DNA of 61,362 nt, the filler included. It is 8 parts of 8 records of this genome, joined end to end, with 100 filler letters (N's around TTAATTAATTAA, not from the genome) between each part and the next. Parts side by side here need not be neighbours in the genome. Positions count along the whole stretch, not along the records: positions 18,071 to 23,535 come from SRR31147125_23109; 7 more parts are not named here. One strand, written 5' to 3'. Both the position numbers and the translations under genes were made by a program. This document shows positions 4,644-23,535 of the stretch, in pieces (within the stretch, counting starts at the first letter, position 1; each line of letters starts with the position of its first letter). The notes beneath the pieces were generated by a model. The model saw only the letters and a program-made list of their open reading frames with translations. It was not told where the DNA came from and made no database searches.

Positions 4644-6230
4644 CTATTCACCTATATTGTTTTGATGCAATCTTCTGTACTCGAGCGGCTTGAGACCTAT
4701 ATGCTTTTTAAAGAGTTTGCTGAAATATGTAGCGCTGTCGTATCCAACAGCGTTTGCTATTTGAGTTAGATTTAAATCACAATTTTTTAGAAGCTCTTTA
4801 GATTTTTTAATCCTTACAGATGCTAAATATTTAATGTAATTCATTCCGGTTTCGCTTTTGAAAACAACGCTAAGATAAACAGGACTAATAAATAACTTTT
4901 CTGCGATTAGTTCCAGAGTTATTGTCTCTGCATAATGTGCATCAATATAATTTTTTGCCTGCTGTGCATACATTGATATGTTCTGCTGCTTTTCATAAAG
5001 CCTTTTGTTAATCTCTTCATCAATTATCTTAATTAACGTTGCCTTCAGATTCATCAAGGAACTACAGCTGTCAAACATCATCTCCGCATGTTTTCTGAAT
5101 GCATCTTTATCCTGAATGCTGACATTTAAATCATCAAATGCTCTTATCATCATATCTACTACAGAAAAACAAAAATCAAAAGCATAACATGGACTGTTTT
5201 CAAAAAGCTTATACTGCAAAGAAAAATAATTGTTTATCCAAGTTCTGATACTTTGCATATCTATAGCTTCAATATGACGTAAAAACTCCTGCTTTGTTCT
5301 GTTATCAATCAAGCCTTTAGTTTCTTTAACATTATTCAGATATTTTGCGTAGTAGATCTGCTTGTTCTCTGTACTTACTCTGCTGTAGCACGCAATCCTT
5401 GCAGATTTCCAGCTATTTTTAAAGTCTTGTATACGATTAACTTCAACTCCAACACCCAAATAGCATTTGTACTGTGTCTTGCCGCCTAATTCCTCCAACG
5501 CGCTTCTTAAAACTTTATCTAGTACTGGTTCAAGCAGATTATTTTTTTTATCAATATAGTTTATTACAGCCAAAAATGTAATGGCGGAGGTTCTGAATGT
5601 TTCTGTTTCGATACAAAAGTCTGACAGTTTATGCTTTAGAGATTCAGAAAACATCATTGTTAGTTTAGGTAAGAATTCTAAATCTGTTGCAACATCACTA
5701 AAGACCACTTTGATTACTGCAAATTTGCCTTCTTTAAAATTATATTGATATTTTTTATTTATAGAAAAAATGGTTTCGTTCTCAATATCCGTTTTAATTA
5801 CATCCAAAAGTCCCTGACGCACCGACTGCTTTTCCATTAGGTTTGTGAGATTTCTGTTTTCTGTATCATCTGTTATTATAGACTTAAGAGCAGCATTCAG
5901 CTCGTCCCCATCTATTGGCTTAAGCAAATATTTGGTTACACCATACTCCATTGCAGAGCGTGCATATTCAAAAACACGAAAGCCGCTTATAACAATGCAC
6001 TTACAGTGTGGATAGTTAGTGGCAACGTGCTTAATTAGTTCATTCCCAGACATGTTTGGCATCTCAATATCACAGATAAGAATATCCGCTGGATCGTTTT
6101 CAAAATGCTTAACAACATCTAATCCGTTATAGTATTCACCAACAAGACTTAGATTTAGTCCCTCCCAATTTATTAAGTGTTTTAATAAAGAACAAACATG
6201 GATTTCATCATCTGCTATGACTACTTTCAT
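4644..6230 (-). CDS. Response regulator with AraC DNA-binding domain (YesN type)
   Basis: Receiver motifs IADDE, CDIEMP and YLLKP; C-terminal AraC HTH (ISPVYLSVVFK...VGYDSATYFSKLFKK). Confidence 0.95.
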   Translation of the reverse strand: MKVVIADDEIHVCSLLKHLINWEGLNLSLVGEYYNGLDVVKHFENDPADILICDIEMPNMSGNELIKHVATNYPHCKCIVISGFRVFEYARSAMEYGVTKYLLKPIDGDELNAALKSIITDDTENRNLTNLMEKQSVRQGLLDVIKTDIENETIFSINKKYQYNFKEGKFAVIKVVFSDVATDLEFLPKLTMMFSESLKHKLSDFCIETETFRTSAITFLAVINYIDKKNNLLEPVLDKVLRSALEELGGKTQYKCYLGVGVEVNRIQDFKNSWKSARIACYSRVSTENKQIYYAKYLNNVKETKGLIDNRTKQEFLRHIEAIDMQSIRTWINNYFSLQYKLFENSPCYAFDFCFSVVDMMIRAFDDLNVSIQDKDAFRKHAEMMFDSCSSLMNLKATLIKIIDEEINKRLYEKQQNISMYAQQAKNYIDAHYAETITLELIAEKLFISPVYLSVVFKSETGMNYIKYLASVRIKKSKELLKNCDLNLTQIANAVGYDSATYFSKLFKKHIGLKPLEYRRLHQNNIGE

Positions 6231-11323: not shown

Positions 11324-11410
11324 TCTTATTCCTTTCAATATTTAATATTACTTAAGCTGGCTAATTATAAATATTTTATCTAGTTTTTGCTAAAATAATG
11401 ATGAATATTT

Positions 11411-11895
11411 TTAATCTATACATTCATTTATTGCTTTAAAAATAAGCATACCAACTGTTGCGCCACCGTCTACATTACCAATTGATTTCTCTTGATAATA
11501 TGCTGCTCTTCCATGTACAGCCATCATCTCTTTGGTTTTTTCCATTCCTGCATACGCACCGTCTGCCGCCTTTTGTGCAGCTTCTTTTAGTGACACATCG
11601 TCAGCACATTCATTAAGTGCGTCCAATGCTCCACCGATTGAGTCAAGTATGGTTTTTTCACCGCGTTTAGATCCTGCACGTGAGCATATACCATCTAAAC
11701 CACCTTGTACAAAATCTCTATACTCTGCAACGCCAAGGCTGTCTTTCCCACTTATAGCCTTTGCTCCACCCATCATTGCAGCACTTAAAATAGTACCTAA
11801 AGATGAAGGTGAATGCTCATTTATTGCCATTGCTGCTTTTAATATTACTTTTTTAGGTTCAGCTGTTGCAGTGTCCATTCCTTTTAGCTCATCTA
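11411..11895 (-). CDS. dhaL: Dihydroxyacetone kinase subunit L (DAK2 domain); 5' end truncated by contig end
   Basis: GEKTILD, GRAAY and DGGAT DAK2 motifs. Confidence 0.88.
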
Positions 11896-11995
11896 NNNNN
11901 NNNNNNNNNNNNNNNNNNNNNNNNNNNNNNNNNNNNNNNTTAATTAATTAANNNNNNNNNNNNNNNNNNNNNNNNNNNNNNNNNNNNNNNNNNNN
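11896..11995. other. Artificial contig spacer
   Basis: N44-TTAATTAATTAA-N44, which places stops in all six frames. Confidence 0.99.
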
Positions 11996-18070: not shown

Positions 18071-18282
18071 GATATGGGAGAGTAGGGATAGCCTTTCTTT
18101 ACAAAATGTTGTATGAGGGGGAACTTGAAGAGAAATATAAAAACGAATTTGATTATTGGTTATCAGGTTATGATGCATTAGATATTAGTGTTAGAGATAA
18201 CTTAAATATAAAAAATAATTATTCAGAATATGTTTTCGGTTTGTTGGAAGGTTATGCCGGAATCATTTTAACCACCCTGTAA
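18071..18282 (+). CDS. C-terminal end of a LanC-like (lanthionine synthetase C-like) protein; 5' end truncated
   Basis: Not in the ORF track. The frame from 18073 reads YGRVGIAFLYKMLY...FDYWL...FGLLEGYAGIILTTL*. GLLEGxAGI is the typical last LanC alpha/alpha-barrel repeat. The stop is 1 nt before the next ATG. Confidence 0.7.
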
Positions 18283-18283
18283 A

Positions 18284-19465
18284 ATGAGTAAAGTTAATTG
18301 GATTATTTTGTCAAGTAAAGATCGTGGAAATGAATATGGAGTAGGGTCATTTATTAAACATTTTTCAATGGGTCTTGCAGAAAGAGAGGATATTAATGTC
18401 TACATTCTTGATATTATTAGTAACTCAAGTCATGATTTCAAAATCCAACTAAAAGAAGGCGTTCACATATTAACGTTTCCAATTGCATCAAGCCTTGAAG
18501 GAATTGATTACGTTGGTAAGCAAGAAAAGATTGCAAAGGGAATTGCCGTGGTTGTTTCTTTAATTATTCCAAGCGGAGGTTCGAATGTAATCCACATGAA
18601 CTATTTGTTCCAGTTTTTTATCGCTCGTGAATTGAAAAGAATTATAGAAGGAAGAGTTTTGTTCACTCAACACGTATTTCTTCTGGATGAAAAGATAAAT
18701 AAGGATGTATTTGACATAGAATTTGCTACTTATGATTTGGTAGATGTAATTGCCACTGTTACTAAACATGGAAAAGATCATTTGGTAAAAAAAGGAGTAT
18801 CTGAAGAAAAAGTCAAAGTTATTTATAATGGGATTGATCCTCGCCTTTTTGATTTTGATTCGTATGGAGAAATCAACATCTCAAAGAAATACGGGTTATC
18901 ATCCAACGAAAAGATCATTTTATATAGTGGTCGAATAGATGGAATTAAGGGACTTAGGTTTTTATGCTCTGCAATGGATCTATTAATTAAGGATTATCAG
19001 CAAGTAAGACTACTTATAGCTGGGAGCGGTGATTTTGAGAAATTAATTAGCTACTCAAGTTCATTCTCTTCTAATATTTCATTTCTTGGATTCGTTCCTT
19101 TTTCTGATCTGTTGATATTATATAAATTAGCCCATGTCGGTGTAATGCCTTCACTTCAAGAACATTGTAGTTATGTGGCCTTGGAGATGCTACATTGCGG
19201 ACTTCCGGTTGTTGCTTCAAATATCGGAGGCTTAAAGGAAATTTTTATTCACAATAAAAATGCACTTCTAACAGAAATGATAGAGGATAAATCAAATCTA
19301 TTTGGGGTTTCTCCAGATGTTTTAACGTTGAAGAATCAACTATCCAGACTCTTAGAGGATGAGAATTTACGCAGGAGCTTTGCGAAAAGATCAATAATTC
19401 GTGCATTAGATATGTTCACTTGTGAAAAAATGATTGAAGGGTACATTCAAACCCTTAAAATTTGA
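18284..19465 (+). CDS. GT4 glycosyltransferase resembling the Bacteroidales GG-peptide system glycosyltransferase (TIGR04157-like)
   Basis: N-terminal YGVGSF, IHMNY, VIYNGID, YSGRIDGIKG and PSLQEHCSYVALEM (EX7E); RiPP context. Confidence 0.88.
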   Translation: MSKVNWIILSSKDRGNEYGVGSFIKHFSMGLAEREDINVYILDIISNSSHDFKIQLKEGVHILTFPIASSLEGIDYVGKQEKIAKGIAVVVSLIIPSGGSNVIHMNYLFQFFIARELKRIIEGRVLFTQHVFLLDEKINKDVFDIEFATYDLVDVIATVTKHGKDHLVKKGVSEEKVKVIYNGIDPRLFDFDSYGEINISKKYGLSSNEKIILYSGRIDGIKGLRFLCSAMDLLIKDYQQVRLLIAGSGDFEKLISYSSSFSSNISFLGFVPFSDLLILYKLAHVGVMPSLQEHCSYVALEMLHCGLPVVASNIGGLKEIFIHNKNALLTEMIEDKSNLFGVSPDVLTLKNQLSRLLEDENLRRSFAKRSIIRALDMFTCEKMIEGYIQTLKI

Positions 19466-19469
19466 TGTT

Positions 19470-21110
19470 ATGAAAGGTGTAAAAGAAGACAATGCTATTT
19501 ATATCGTTCAAAAAGCGATTGACCATTTTAAAATTAAAGTTAGTGGTACAACGATAAGAGAGACTTTACAAAACCATCCAAATTATCCTTCATTGAAATG
19601 TATTTGCGATGCTTTGTCTAGTTGGAATATTGAATGTTATCCTTTGAAGTTGCAGTTTGATGAAATGGTGGAGTTGGGTGGAGGTTTTATTGCCCATTTA
19701 AAGATTGCAGGAGGGCAGCTTGCCTTTGTAAAAACTTTTAATACCGATAAGATTACTTTTTATTTGCAAAGTGATAAGGAAATCACAGTCGAATTTGATG
19801 ATTTTATGAAAATATCATCGGGAGTTGTAATTGTAATTCAGGCCAATGCCGAATCCGGGGAAAAGGATTTTCGAATTAAATTTCATAAGGAAATCCTAAA
19901 TAAAAATCTATTTACAATTGCTGCAATATCTATAATTGCGATACTTCTACTAGTATTTAATACTCAGGTCTTTGGGAGACAGTTGCTTTCCTCTAAAATA
20001 TTTTTCGGTTCACTTGTGATAAACTTGTTGGGGATTGTAACTTCAATATTGTTGATTTTACATGAGTTTAAGATAAACATTGCATTAACTGACAAAATTT
20101 GTCATGTCCATTCAAGTTTTGACTGCAATAAAATATTAAACTCCAATGCGGCAACATTATTTGGTTGGATTAATTGGGCAGACACTGGACTTATTTATTT
20201 TCTAGGAACGTTAGTGTATTTGGTAGGTTCACCTGAGAAAAGCAGGTTTGTCCTTTTGGCTTTAGTTAGTGTATTTCCAATGCCAATATTATTTTATTTA
20301 GCCTATTCACAGTTGGTTGTGCTAAAAAAAATATGCCCGTTATGTTTGGCGACTCAGATACTGTTACTAGCGCAATTCGCAATTTTTTTACCTTTGATAA
20401 ACCATGTGGAATTTCGTCTTTTTCCAGTAATACGGCTCTTGACTGGATATGTGATTGTAGCTTCAATTTTGCTGTTGTATAAAGCTTATTATTTAAAAAA
20501 TAATGAATTTGAGAAGGAACATAAAAAGCTTTTGCAGTTTAAAAGCGATTCAAAGACCTTCCTTTTCCATCTTGAATCATCCAGGTATATCGATTTTAGC
20601 GAGATCAGAGGAAATATTACAATAAGAACTATCGCCTCAAAAATTGATTTAGTAGCTTTCCTGGGATTAAACTGTAACCATTGCGGTAAAGTTTTTGATC
20701 AAATAATTCAACTTAGCGAGCAACTTCCAGTAAATGTTGAGATCTTCTTTCCAAAACCTACTGACCCGGTTTCTAAAGACATAATTTATCAGATAGAAAA
20801 CTTAAATGAGGCTAGAGAATATGATGCTTTATTTTCCATGATTCAAAATTGGTATAATGATGATCCCAGAGCTTTTATTAAAAAACTGAATGCTTATGAC
20901 TTAGGTGATAATGAAACGACTGTTCTTGATGGCTGTGGTGACGAAACTGATTATTTCAATATTTACGAGATTAATACAACACCTAAGGTCTTTCTGAATG
21001 GGTATCAATTGCCAGGTATTTATGAACTCAATGAAGTGATCTATTTTACAGACGAAATAATCGCACTAACACAAAGGAAAAGGCAGGAAGCACACATAAA
21101 GGTTGGATAA
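19470..21110 (+). CDS. C39-like (non-catalytic) / VKOR / thioredoxin-fold fusion membrane protein
   Basis: N-terminal HPNYPSL...FIAHL C39-like domain with no QxxxxDC motif; VKOR Cys pairs ICHVHSSFDC and CPLC among TM helices; C-terminal CNHC and TPKVFLNG. Start taken as ATG 19470. Confidence 0.88.
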   Translation: MKGVKEDNAIYIVQKAIDHFKIKVSGTTIRETLQNHPNYPSLKCICDALSSWNIECYPLKLQFDEMVELGGGFIAHLKIAGGQLAFVKTFNTDKITFYLQSDKEITVEFDDFMKISSGVVIVIQANAESGEKDFRIKFHKEILNKNLFTIAAISIIAILLLVFNTQVFGRQLLSSKIFFGSLVINLLGIVTSILLILHEFKINIALTDKICHVHSSFDCNKILNSNAATLFGWINWADTGLIYFLGTLVYLVGSPEKSRFVLLALVSVFPMPILFYLAYSQLVVLKKICPLCLATQILLLAQFAIFLPLINHVEFRLFPVIRLLTGYVIVASILLLYKAYYLKNNEFEKEHKKLLQFKSDSKTFLFHLESSRYIDFSEIRGNITIRTIASKIDLVAFLGLNCNHCGKVFDQIIQLSEQLPVNVEIFFPKPTDPVSKDIIYQIENLNEAREYDALFSMIQNWYNDDPRAFIKKLNAYDLGDNETTVLDGCGDETDYFNIYEINTTPKVFLNGYQLPGIYELNEVIYFTDEIIALTQRKRQEAHIKVG

Positions 21111-21134
21111 ATGCTCCCTGCCGGCTCTTTCCTT
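21074..21134 (+). other. Extended stem-loop spanning the VKOR stop codon
   Basis: AAGGAAA and GGCAGGAAGCA pair with TGCTCCCTGCC (1 mismatch) and TTTCCTT. Confidence 0.5.
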
Positions 21135-21255
21135 AAAAAAGAAAGGAGGTACTGTGACAAAGATAAACCATTAATTCATTAAATGATTTCATCATTAACC
21201 TTTGAAATGATAAATAAGGTAATACCACAATTTCTAAAATTTAATTTTAAACAAA

Positions 21256-21488
21256 ATGAAAAAATTAATAAACTAAGTATTAGTCCTGATAAAATTTTGA
21301 AAGAAGATCAATTAGTAAGTCTTAAAGGTGGTTATGCATATTGTTCATGTGTTACAAAATATAGCGTAGGAGGAGGAGGTGGTGACGTTGTCGGTCATAT
21401 TTATGGAGTTACTGATGCTTACTCTTGTAATTCACGATGTCAACAATCTTATGGATCCAATGTCTGGGGATTTATAGACACAATGTAG
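21256..21488 (+). CDS. Double-glycine-leader RiPP precursor with a 4-Cys core; apparent 1-nt frameshift just after the likely ATG
   Basis: Leader ...NKLSISPDKILKEDQLVSLKGG, core YAYCSCVTKYSVGGGGGDVVGHIYGVTDAYSCNSRCQQSYGSNVWGFIDTM. ATG 21256 (ATGAAAAAA) is one base out of frame; in-frame ATGs exist at 21183 and 21207. Confidence 0.8.
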
Positions 21489-21492
21489 AAAT

Positions 21493-21540
21493 ATAGGGAA
21501 CATTCCTTCAGCTTAGTGGAATGTTCCTTTATTTATTTTT
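21493..21540 (+). terminator. Hairpin/terminator between the precursor and the exporter
   Basis: Perfect 10-bp stem GGAACATTCC...GGAATGTTCC followed by TTTATTTATTTTT. Confidence 0.7.
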
Positions 21541-21602
21541 CATTGTGATAATAATAGCATCTTTATTTCTCAGTAGTCAGCACTATCCCAAAAGTATCAT
21601 AA

Positions 21603-23535
21603 ATGCATAGAAACAGGTTTCCTAGCTATAAGCAACTAGACTCGATGGACTGTGGTCCTACTTGTTTGAAAATCATATCAAAATACTATGGTAAGAACTA
21701 TAGCATTAACTATCTACGAGAAAAATCACACATTACTACAGAAGGAGTCTCGTTGTTGGGTATCAGTGAAGCGGCTGAAAACATTGGATTCAGAACAAAG
21801 GGTTATCGTTTAACCTGGGAAGAATTGAGGGATGAAGTACCTCTTCCATGCATATTACACTGGAAGCAACGCCATTTTGTTGTGGTGTATAAAATCCAAA
21901 CAACGAAAGGAAATCGCTTTCGAAGAAAACTAGAACCAGGGAGTAGTGATGATTTAAAAACCACGGTATATATATCGGATCCGGCACATGGGTTGCTCCA
22001 ATACCGTAAAGAAGAATTCTTAAAGTGTTGGTTAAGTTCAAAACAGAACAATTACGATGAGGGCACAGCTTTACTTTTGGAGCCAACACCGGCTTTCTAT
22101 AAGATTGAAACAGACCGAAAAATTCATTTGAATTTTGTCTATTTGCTAGGGTACCTTAAGCCTTATAAGAAATTTATTATACAGTTAGGGCTGGGGATGC
22201 TGACCGGTAGTATCATTAGCCTGATTTTTCCGCTCCTCACGCAATCAGTTGTTGACTATGGTATAGGAAATGGAGATTTTGCATTTATTGTTCTGGTGCT
22301 TGTTGCTCAAATGATACTTACTTTCGGGCAAGTTGCAAATGACATTATTCGTAGCTGGATTTTATTGCACGTGACAACAAGAATCAGTATTTCCCTAATT
22401 ACCGATTTTTTGATAAAGATAATGAAATTACCAATTTCATTCTTTGATACAAAGATGGTTGGTGACATTATGCAACGTTTGCAGGATCACAATCGTATCC
22501 AATTATTTTTAACAAAATCTTTGGTTGATATACTTTTTGCAGTTATTACTCTGGCTATTTACATATTCATCATGGCTTCCTACCATTTAAGTATTCTTTT
22601 CATTTTTATTTTGGGAAGTTCCATGTATATAGGATGGGTTTTACTCTTTTTAAAAAGAAGACGAGAAATTGACTACAAACGTTTTCAGGAATCTTCGGCT
22701 AATCAAAGTAATATAGTCCAGTTAATAAATGGGATGCAGGAAATAAAACTAAATGCCTGCGAAAAACAAAAACGTTGGGAGTGGGAGAGTATTCAGGCAA
22801 GATTATATAGGGTTAGCATCAAAGGTCTTAGACTAAGTCAGAATCAACAGATTGGAGCCACTTTTATAAATCAATCAAAGGATTTGCTAATATCATTCTT
22901 ATCTGCAAAAGCTGTAGTTACAGGCGATATGACACTCGGGATGATGATGGCTGTTCAGTATATAATTGGACAATTAAATGCTCCTGTTCATAAATTTATA
23001 GGGTTCACTCAGGAAGCACAAGATGCTAAAATAAGCCTGGAAAGGTTGGCAGAAGTTCATAACCAGGATGATGAAGAGAAAGTTGAAGAAAATAAGATAT
23101 CTGAGATCCCGAAGAATGTGAACATTGAAATCAAAAATCTGACATTTCAGTATGAAGGACCCAAATCCGAGAAAGTATTGAATGAAGTAAACCTGACAAT
23201 CCCAAGTAATAAAATAACTGCTATCGTAGGAACAAGTGGAAGTGGTAAAACCACACTTATAAAATTGATGCTTGGATTTTATAAACCTGCTGAGGGAGAA
23301 ATAGAGCTTGGAGGCATTGACTTGAAGCGATTCAGTGAATCAAACTGGCGAAAAAAATGTGGTGTAGTTATGCAAGAGGGATATATTTTTTCGGACACAA
23401 TTGTAAACAACATTGGAATAATGGACGAAATCTCAATTATAGAAAAAGTGGAGCATGCGGTAACTACGGCAAATGTTGATGAGTTTGTAGATAAGTTGCC
23501 ACTTCGTTACAATACAATTATTGGGGATCAGGGCA
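21603..23535 (+). CDS. Peptidase C39 domain-containing ABC transporter (PCAT, SunT/LanT type); 3' end truncated
   Basis: QLDSMDCGPTCL, CILHW..RHFVV and ISDPA; ABC TM domain; GTSGSGKTT. Confidence 0.96.

Follow-up and report, generated by a model that had tools for sequence, protein, structure and literature searches.

The gene cluster discussed here has its closest described counterparts in the glycocins, in the bacteroidetocins and in the GG-Bacteroidales radical SAM (rSAM) system. In the sublancin operon a precursor, a glycosyltransferase, thiol-disulfide oxidoreductases and a C39 exporter are combined, and glycocins are defined by nested disulfides that arise from paired C-x6-C motifs. The ten experimentally identified glycocins all come from Bacillota, according to sections of a 2022 paper (PMC9576775). 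For the bacteroidetocins it was reported that deletion of the thiol oxidoreductase attenuates activity and that the natural peptides migrate differently when reduced; the question of disulfides in exported peptides of bacteria without general Dsb machinery was raised in the same sections (PMC6671954). In the present study we analysed a stretch of DNA of 61,362 nt, called the window in the following, in which one contig carries genes for a LanC-like protein, a GT4 glycosyltransferase, a fusion of C39-like, VKOR and DsbA-like domains (the fusion enzyme), a precursor with a double-glycine (GG) leader and a peptidase-containing ATP-binding cassette transporter (PCAT). We read this contig, with a probability of about 0.55, as a truncated copy of a conserved Bacteroidota operon for an exported, disulfide-stapled peptide that would also receive a sugar. 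By analogy, the product is probably a bacteriocin-like competition factor.

This gene set is widespread in Bacteroidota and adds a LanC-like/GT4 pair to the known glycocin- or bacteroidetocin-like layout; no report on its characterisation was found in the literature searched. Likewise, the literature on bacteroidetocin, glycocin, TIGRFAM and VKOR-bacteriocin topics shows no characterised product for it, as had been stated in a sequence-only reading of the contig. No glycocin from Bacteroidota was met in the literature searched, of which the supplements were not seen and a 2021 survey beyond Firmicutes is known to us by citation only. Searches for literature linking bacteroidetocin with vitamin K epoxide reductase, or VKOR with C39, thioredoxin and bacteriocin, returned nothing.

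The window consists of eight contigs joined by N44-TTAATTAATTAA-N44 spacers, with GC contents between 0.31 and 0.52. The cluster coincides exactly with one of them (18071-23535; 5,465 bp, GC 0.34), which is cut at both ends. Five genes, all of them real, follow each other head to tail on the plus strand, and the four enzyme and exporter open reading frames (ORFs) are intact up to the contig ends. The first ORF is open at the contig start and encodes the C-terminal 69 aa of the LanC-like protein (18073-18282; Pfam LANC_like, E 0.008). A single nucleotide separates its stop from the start of the GT4 gene (18284-19465, 393 aa; Glycos_transf_1 2.3e-29, Glyco_transf_4 9e-10), and 4 nt lie between the GT4 stop and the ATG of the fusion gene (19470-21110; VKOR 1.2e-17, Peptidase_C39 6.3e-4), for which an alternative TTG start exists at 19434. 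The precursor ORF as assembled comprises 101 aa (21183-21488), with the GG at 21327-21332. It is followed by the PCAT gene (21603-23535), which the contig end cuts at residue 644. The PCAT combines Peptidase_C39 (1.4e-32), ABC_membrane (6.9e-25) and ABC_tran (2e-18) domains, keeps the Gln, Cys and His of the C39 site as well as Walker A, and has TIGR03796 and TIGR01193 as best matches, both below their cut-offs. From its identity of 73-84% to the PCATs of relatives, 'Bacteroidales', which we take in the GTDB sense, is a fair guess for the source of the contig.

The searches for related loci started from the GT4, with three relatives at 45-56% identity, and from the fusion enzyme, with 30 and then 45 loci; a word-index search for fusion-enzyme homologues gave only 6. 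ORFs of the relatives were called and labelled by BLASTP against seven reference proteins from these loci, and 16 locus identifiers were dropped before counting, namely 15 repeat contig regions and the locus L004, whose Bacillus GT4 is unrelated. In dozens of Bacteroidota loci (L001, L002, L005, L008, L009, L014, L017-L019, L023-L025 and others) the genes recur in the order LanC-like, GT4, fusion, one or more GG precursors, PCAT and HlyD. Since the same order is found in the loci of many genomes, the arrangement is not due to chance. Most carriers are metagenome-assembled genomes of Prolixibacteraceae and other Bacteroidales/Marinilabiliales; among the cultured carriers are Draconibacterium mangrovi, whose strain GM2-18 (L007) has no GT4, and Puteibacter caeruleilacunae. 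In L049 a gene for an outer-membrane efflux protein follows. The parts list of five genes that had been given for 18071-23535 is confirmed by the domain hits together with this order, and the domain hits on the contig also support the sequence-only reading in its proposal that other enzyme families here follow a glycocin-like logic of GG precursor, glycosyltransferase, thiol-disulfide oxidoreductase and C39 exporter. Of that interpretation as a whole, this logic, the kinship with the GG-Bacteroidales system and the disulfides stood, and the thioethers and the cut-off rSAM or LanB genes did not.

The best supported part is that the peptide would be exported and disulfide-stapled, with every Cys paired. 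Three parts make up the fusion enzyme: first the C39-like domain (about 19470-19890), then an additional transmembrane helix together with the VKOR core (about 19900-20500), and finally a thioredoxin domain of the DsbA/BdbD-like kind (about 20560-21107). The VKOR loop Cys pair, the membrane CxxC, the second CxxC and the cis-Pro are invariant (alignments A1, A4 and A7), and this invariance of six catalytic Cys and the cis-Pro extends from Prolixibacteraceae to Parabacteroides, Spirosoma, Kordia and Flavobacterium/Flavobacteriaceae, with partners down to 18-25% identity. The thioredoxin part of the window's own protein had no Pfam match at E<=0.1; the alignment of the family shows conservation of the C-terminal CxxC and cis-Pro, and the family profile matches DsbA/BdbD-like structures at 5e-9 to 1e-6 and the Synechococcus VKOR (PDB 4NV2) at 4e-4. 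The peptides encoded beside the fusion enzyme are hypervariable yet rich in Cys. An even number of Cys was counted in 28 of 29 distinct cores of a first set, in 47 of 51 of a larger set and in 26 of the 29 representatives left by single-linkage clustering at 40% identity (one-sided binomial p 7.6e-6). With such even counts, no Cys would be left over for an S-linked sugar or a thioether. Taken together, the invariant oxidase Cys and the even counts give good support to the disulfide bonding that had been expected for the product.

At its N-terminus the fusion enzyme matches Peptidase_C39 with 20 bits, under the cut-off of 22. BLASTP of this domain against the PCAT's own C39 domain revealed no significant match and its profile found only a weak PCAT match in the PDB (E 0.65); a fold search settled the C39 identity. 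The model of the domain (144 aa, pLDDT 82) matches PCAT1, ComA, LahT and the C39-like domain of HlyB with TM-scores of 0.69-0.74. The LahT structure was solved with a leader peptide and the HlyB domain is an inactive C39-like domain. An invariant Asn opens helix 1, which we take to be the position of the catalytic Cys in C39 peptidases, and a Gln aligns with the catalytic His in a weak profile alignment to PCAT. By alignment and model, the C39 domain of the fusion enzyme is probably catalytically dead and docks the leader.

The membrane side on which the fusion enzyme acts was approached by a hydropathy scan of 54 distinct full-length proteins. An extra helix before the first VKOR helix is present in nearly all of them; six helices were detected in 21, five in 27 (including the window's own protein), four in 5 and three in 1. 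If there are six helices, the docking and DsbA-like domains would face the same compartment. In the 21 six-helix proteins the Lys plus Arg numbers per loop are 1-7, 0-1, 3-7, 0-1, 0-3, 0-2 and 2-6, numbers from a crude scan in which the long Cys loop inflates the count. We lean towards the arrangement that follows from the positive-inside rule, with the two termini and the Cys loop in the cytoplasm, where the fusion enzyme could act on the leader-bearing peptide before cleavage and export by the PCAT.

Of the LanC-like protein the window retains only the tail (LANC_like 15.2 bits, cut-off 23.2), which aligns with the C-terminus of full-length LanC-like genes at the same position in relatives (tblastn to L002, 1.9e-5). 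Inside the G-x-x-x-G-x-A-G motif of this tail, Leu-Glu replaces the Cys-His of the cyclases. Full-length relatives have about 360-440 aa and match LANC_like at 1e-11, and their profile matches class III LanKC at 1e-5 and the class I cyclase MadC at 7e-5. The L002 protein, modelled with a pLDDT of 77, is closest to MadC, LanCL1, GCR2, CuvL and NisC (TM-score 0.50-0.60), with GH105 and GH76 glycosidases at 0.30-0.35. On this model the protein has a LanC alpha/alpha-barrel fold and is not endoglucanase-like. The LanC fold is the peptide-binding scaffold in lanthipeptide cyclases.

The real LanC fold and the match to class III LanKC are what would speak for a lanthipeptide-like product whose thioether rings the LanC-like protein would close, and the sequence-only reading had called the peptide possibly thioether-linked. 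The profile collects 825 representatives at E<=1e-30, and the family alignment contains no invariant Cys or His; within the top 150 profile hits, Cys-His was found in 0 of 69 motif-bearing and W-C-x-G in 0 of 117 near-full-length representatives. The contig itself encodes no dehydratase, and no dehydratase, kinase or lyase was seen among those neighbours of the relatives that were examined, a selection of the ORFs in these loci. The six large flanking ORFs checked encode FG-GAP, GH2, CHAT, regulator propeller, polyphosphate kinase and AraC/TPR proteins, and none is a lanthipeptide dehydratase. With the zinc site gone and no dehydratase nearby, thioether formation is very unlikely, and the even Cys counts fit products in which all Cys form disulfides. 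The expectation of thioethers thus found no support, and a lanthipeptide-like product, which keeps next to no probability, is close to refuted.

We rather connect the LanC-like protein with glycosyl transfer. The GT4 keeps the E-x7-E and G-R-x4-K-G motifs, which are conserved in 17 family members. Its best NCBIfam match is TIGR04157 (231.8 bits, cut-off 400). GT4 is a retaining family in CAZy, so the product would be alpha-linked. Of the near-family loci, 30 extend at least 2.5 kb upstream of the fusion gene; 18 of these contain GT4 (adjoining the fusion gene in 17) and 24 the LanC-like gene. No GT4 occurs without the LanC-like gene, and the reverse case was found in 6 of the 30 loci. The genes of the pair adjoin or overlap each other. 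Clusters of glycosyltransferase/LanC-like fusions were indicated by the ESM Atlas, and this lead was then tested. The sole longer LanC-like homologue was an 846-aa LanC-like plus GT4 protein, and all six LanC-like hits of at least 600 aa among the top 150 representatives are fusions with glycosyltransferases (four GT4, one GT11, one Glyco_transf_7C). Overall, 7 of 7 long LanC-like relatives are such fusions, 5 with GT4, 1 with GT11 and 1 with Glyco_transf_7C. The transferase itself is exchangeable: L040 has a 559-aa GT2 in the place of GT4, L044 a Glyco_transf_7C-like enzyme besides GT4, a Parabacteroides distasonis record, for which a second such locus was found, a LanC family protein with galactosyltransferase-related and GT-A proteins, and Spirosoma a 446-aa annotated glycosyltransferase, judged GT1-like by eye, with a GT-A protein. 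The L040 GT2 was also considered as a LanC-like fusion; hhalign found nothing of this kind.

Co-occurrence, fusions and interchangeable glycosyltransferase families tie the LanC-like protein to glycosyl transfer. They suggest a two-part peptide glycosyltransferase in which it serves as an adaptor and would hold the peptide while the glycosyltransferase adds the sugar. The recurrence of several glycosyltransferase families in distant lineages further suggests that the slot between the oxidase and exporter genes selects for glycosyl transfer. Glycosylation of the peptide by GT4 is plausible but unproven.

An alternative is an unglycosylated, bacteroidetocin-like class II system in which the LanC-like/GT4 pair would act on an envelope glycan or lipid, for self-protection, or on a small molecule. 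Several observations favour it or weigh against our reading. The nearest solved relatives of the GT4 (sucrose-phosphate-synthase-like, GlgM, BshA and MshA) use small-molecule or glycan acceptors and not peptides. Neither GT4 nor the LanC-like gene is found in 6 of the 30 near loci, and both are missing from all 19 loci of the Flavobacteriaceae/Kordia type. In 54 more distant loci with usable flanks (Chitinophagales, Sphingobacteriales, Flavobacteriales and others), the PCAT lies within 5 kb in 35 and HlyD in 22, but the LanC-like gene was seen in 3, GT2 in 4 and GT4 in none; the core of the wider family is the fusion enzyme with the PCAT and no glycosyltransferase. In addition, bacteroidetocins were active as unmodified synthetic peptides, as stated in parts of PMC6671954. 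Further points against our reading are the odd Cys counts in 4 of the 51 cores, the crudeness of the hydropathy scan, the fact that antibacterial activity is assumed by analogy only, and the absence here of any direct demonstration of a sugar on the peptide or of a contact between enzyme and peptide, glycosylation being deduced. On the other hand, the nesting of GT4 occurrence inside that of the LanC-like gene, the fusions with three glycosyltransferase families, the LanC fold as best structural match and the several glycosyltransferase families between oxidase and exporter genes in distant lineages all argue for a transferase that works on the peptide, and we judge the unglycosylated alternative unlikely on balance. 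Judged from its distribution, the glycosyl module is an add-on to a base system of oxidase, GG peptide and exporter, which is the bacteroidetocin layout.

The leader family connects the cluster to the rSAM system mentioned above. The window's precursor ORF gave no TIGR04149 hit at E<=0.1; five relatives have leaders that reach 15.2-24.5 bits, under the cut-off of 25. The locus L008 joins both systems, since TIGR04148 (445.6 bits), TIGR04150 (329 bits) and a TIGR04149 precursor (38.9 bits) stand beside the LanC-like/GT4/VKOR block, and its GT4 matches TIGR04157 with 253.8 bits. The proposed kinship with the GG-Bacteroidales system is borne out by this locus, by TIGR04157 as best glycosyltransferase match and by the leaders near TIGR04149. 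From these matches, the system is a modular relative of the rSAM system, and most of its copies lack an rSAM enzyme. The product could alternatively be an rSAM-modified peptide of the TIGR04148/04149/04150 type, with the maturase genes in the missing flanks, as suggested by the related leader, by L008 and by L049, where TIGR04148 passes its cut-off with 342.5 bits and TIGR04150 reaches 212.1 bits against 250. Neither the TIGR04148 rSAM enzyme nor its TIGR04150 partner is present on the visible contig, both flanks of which are cut. rSAM-like pairs were flagged in only 3 of 63 distinct loci (L008, L033 and L049), with single candidates in L018 and L071. The L008 pair stands between the precursor and PCAT genes, where the window has just 115 nt and no gene, and those of L049 and L033 each have a precursor of their own. 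We give an rSAM-modified product very little probability. The suggestion that an upstream rSAM or LanB gene had been cut off is not supported either: the LanC-like gene is the first of the block in L001 and L002, and the rare rSAM pairs are placed elsewhere.

The core of the window's precursor (21333-21485) has 51 aa with 15 Ser, Thr or Tyr and 4 Cys at core positions 4, 6, 32 and 36, in the pattern C-x-C ... C-x3-C with a Gly-rich stretch between the Cys pairs. A Bacteriocin_IIc match is weak (E 0.056), and a word-index search for precursor homologues found none. In the relatives the leader runs over 26 aa from a conserved ATG to the GG; the window's leader is homologous and at least as long. 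The DNA alignment with five homologous leaders places this conserved ATG at 21256-21258 on the plus strand, where it is one base out of frame, as a single base is missing just after ATGAAAAAATT. The frame is open upstream, and the in-frame ATGs at 21183 and 21207 could substitute, giving a longer leader. It is equally possible that the missing base is an assembly error in an A-rich run, where metagenome assemblies commonly have single-base errors; otherwise it would be a real lesion. The window's copy may therefore be impaired or mis-assembled, which is a further point against our reading.

This missing base is the main argument for a decayed, non-functional copy, with the contig as a remnant. 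Damage is also found in relatives: the LanC-like gene of the closest relative L001 is split into ORFs of 154 and 226 aa by a frameshift or stop (4852-6020), the fusion or PCAT genes are fragmented in L018, L073 and L078, and L003 holds a chimeric remnant. The intactness of the four enzyme and exporter ORFs, the open frame up to two upstream ATGs with the conserved part of the leader kept, and the frequency of errors of this type speak against decay. The reads that were found leave the site without cover: one public sequencing run, which shares 6% of sampled words, had no read cover on the precursor site and gave only scattered short matches, including three 151-nt contigs identical to stretches inside the PCAT gene. 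We assign decay a small probability.

Directly 3' of the precursor stop lies a hairpin whose core stem measures 12 bp, with a T-rich run behind it (21489-21541, plus strand). RNA folding gave -18.7 kcal/mol with a z-score of -3.46, and 0 of 200 shuffled sequences were as good; a simple terminator scan gave 3 sites, with 2.6 expected, and none at the precursor. As a possible attenuator or terminator, the hairpin may set the ratio of precursor to exporter transcript. A Tyr stands within the first four residues after the GG (21333-21344 in the window) in 29 of 29 cores of the first set, in 44 of 51 of the larger set and in 23 of 29 cluster representatives, with about 31% expected from composition. 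This Tyr was considered as a mark of GT4/LanC-like action and rejected, as it is present also where neither gene was seen, though many such contigs are cut.

The surroundings of the cluster vary between the loci. Upstream of the LanC-like gene, L001 carries a VWA protein and a small SLATT-like protein, and L002 a LytTR regulator and a propeller protein. A gene for a DUF5128 six-bladed-propeller lipoprotein comes after every precursor in many of the relatives (L002, 13139-15887; L003, 10202-17996; L005-L007 and others). This pairing looks like a toxin/immunity arrangement; none was seen in the window, L001, L009 and L024. L003 has a chimeric ORF of 178 aa (11387-11923) within a cluster of several precursors: its N-terminus is PCAT-like and is followed by the last third of a GT4, with 57% identity to that of the window. 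This ORF is a remnant of recombination. The three-domain oxidase of Kordia and its relatives (L061-L077) lies in a strictly conserved other neighbourhood with upstream ORFs of about 342, 273, 168, 627 and 430 aa. No PCAT or GG peptide was detected in these loci, and the oxidase may serve another substrate. L079 and L081 of Parabacteroides distasonis are filed as plasmids and look like chromosome pieces, with lysS, gmk, nadD and pgi; they hold the oxidase, a small peptide and LanC-like/galactosyltransferase-type genes, which places the system in a species of the human gut. Within the window, genes on different sides of a spacer are uninformative about each other and the bin may be mixed. The missing parts of the cluster were not found on the other contigs of the window. 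An unrelated ABC ATPase on another contig (404-1048, minus strand) is 28% identical to the nucleotide-binding domain of the PCAT.

The genes, domains, conserved residues and gene order observed here suggest the following course, in which the substrates, the sugar, the membrane side and the biological activity are deduced. The precursor would be translated with a GG leader of about 26 aa of the TIGR04149 type. In the cytoplasm, the zinc-less LanC-like adaptor and the retaining GT4 would most likely put an alpha-linked sugar on Ser, Thr or Tyr of the core. The fusion enzyme would dock on the leader via its dead C39 domain, and its DsbA-like domain and VKOR core would form two disulfides, probably on the cytoplasmic side, with the electrons passing to quinone. 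The PCAT would then cleave after Gly-Gly and export the peptide, with an HlyD adaptor as in the relatives and an outer-membrane factor as in some loci; the genes for these would lie beyond the contig end.

If this course is true, a peptide glycosyltransferase system with a LanC-fold adaptor would be new for ribosomal peptides. A retaining GT4 acting on a bacteriocin-like peptide would be new as well and would create a different linkage, as the known glycocins use inverting GT2 enzymes. The same holds for a leader-guided disulfide machine, probably on the cytoplasmic side; a cytoplasmic oxidase would explain disulfides in peptides whose ABC/HlyD export bypasses the periplasm. As the fusion enzyme occurs across Bacteroidota, including human-gut Parabacteroides, the peptides may play a part in competition in guts and sediments. 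The contig in the window is partial and possibly frame-shifted; further work would better begin with a cultured carrier such as Puteibacter caeruleilacunae JC036 (L023).

Individual components can be compared with well-studied proteins. The C39-like domain of HlyB (PDB 3ZUA) is used for substrate docking and, like the N-domain of the fusion enzyme, has a C39 fold without the catalytic Cys. The Synechococcus VKOR has five helices, an N-terminus inside and a thioredoxin domain outside. In common with this VKOR-thioredoxin fusion (PDB 4NV2), the fusion enzyme has the two loop Cys and the CxxC of VKOR and is joined to a domain of thioredoxin fold, here DsbA/BdbD-like; it adds an N-terminal helix and a docking domain of 140 aa, and the Lys/Arg pattern of the crude scan favours both ends inside. 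Class III LanKC cyclase domains, which also lack zinc ligands, are the best PDB sequence match to the LanC-like protein (1e-5). No kinase or lyase domains or genes were seen here, which leaves no route to dehydro-amino acids.

The GG-Bacteroidales rSAM system (TIGR04148/04149/04150/04157) shares the leader family and, as best match, the GT4 subfamily, and both systems meet in L008. It relies on an rSAM and a pseudo-rSAM enzyme, whereas the window and most relatives have the VKOR fusion as Cys-modifying enzyme. LanC-like proteins without the zinc motif were also described next to carbohydrate-active enzymes in the rSAM+LanC(+GT) clusters BGC3-5 (Fernandez-Cantos et al. 2023, PMC10352776). In sections of that paper they are read as endoglucanase-like, whereas the fold and the fusions found here point to a LanC fold with a transferase role.

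The bacteroidetocins (class IIf) were compared by their published description. According to parts of the two articles (PMC6671954, PMC8546649), they have in common with the cluster a peptide with a GG leader and four Cys, a thiol oxidoreductase gene next to it, a peptidase-ABC exporter and the phylum. One of their oxidoreductases, named in PMC6671954, is EH213_01843. Their leaders have 15-16 aa as described there, compared with 26 aa in our relatives and at least as many in the window, and their mature peptides have 42-48 aa with at least two and typically four Cys, compared with 51 aa and four Cys in the window's core. According to the same sections, their unit includes a gene for a five-TM protein, which was not recognised in L001 and L002 and is not on the contig, both ends of which are cut. 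A glycosyltransferase or LanC-like gene is not described in the part of the PMC6671954 text considered ('glycosyl' 0 times). A single-protein scan with the Parabacteroides fusion enzyme for bacteroidetocin loci gave nothing, and among the best 80 of 137 loci from an alignment scan with the fusion enzyme there was no named Bacteroides or Prevotella bacteroidetocin strain.

With the glycocins of Bacillota (sublancin, glycocin F) the cluster shares the GG-leader precursor, the C39 ABC exporter, the oxidoreductase genes, a dedicated glycosyltransferase and a small Cys-stapled peptide whose Cys pairs flank a Gly-rich stretch. The enzymes are different, as glycocins use GT2 enzymes of the SunS/GccA type (GT-A, inverting) together with BdbA/BdbB, whereas the only glycosyltransferase on the contig is a GT4 (GT-B, retaining) with a LanC-like partner, and oxidation falls to a VKOR/DsbA-like fusion that carries a dead C39 domain. 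In glycocins the sugar sits on Ser, Thr or Cys of the mature peptide. The paired C-x6-C motifs with their two nested disulfides are replaced by C-x-C and C-x3-C, and the Gram-positive producers by a Gram-negative one, with HlyD in the relatives. It is conceivable, and we put it forward tentatively, that the system is a Gram-negative counterpart of the glycocins assembled from unrelated parts: a LanC-like adaptor with a retaining GT4 (GT2, GT11 or GT7C in relatives), a cytoplasm-facing, leader-guided oxidase and an alpha-O-glycosylated peptide that would be exported past the periplasm.

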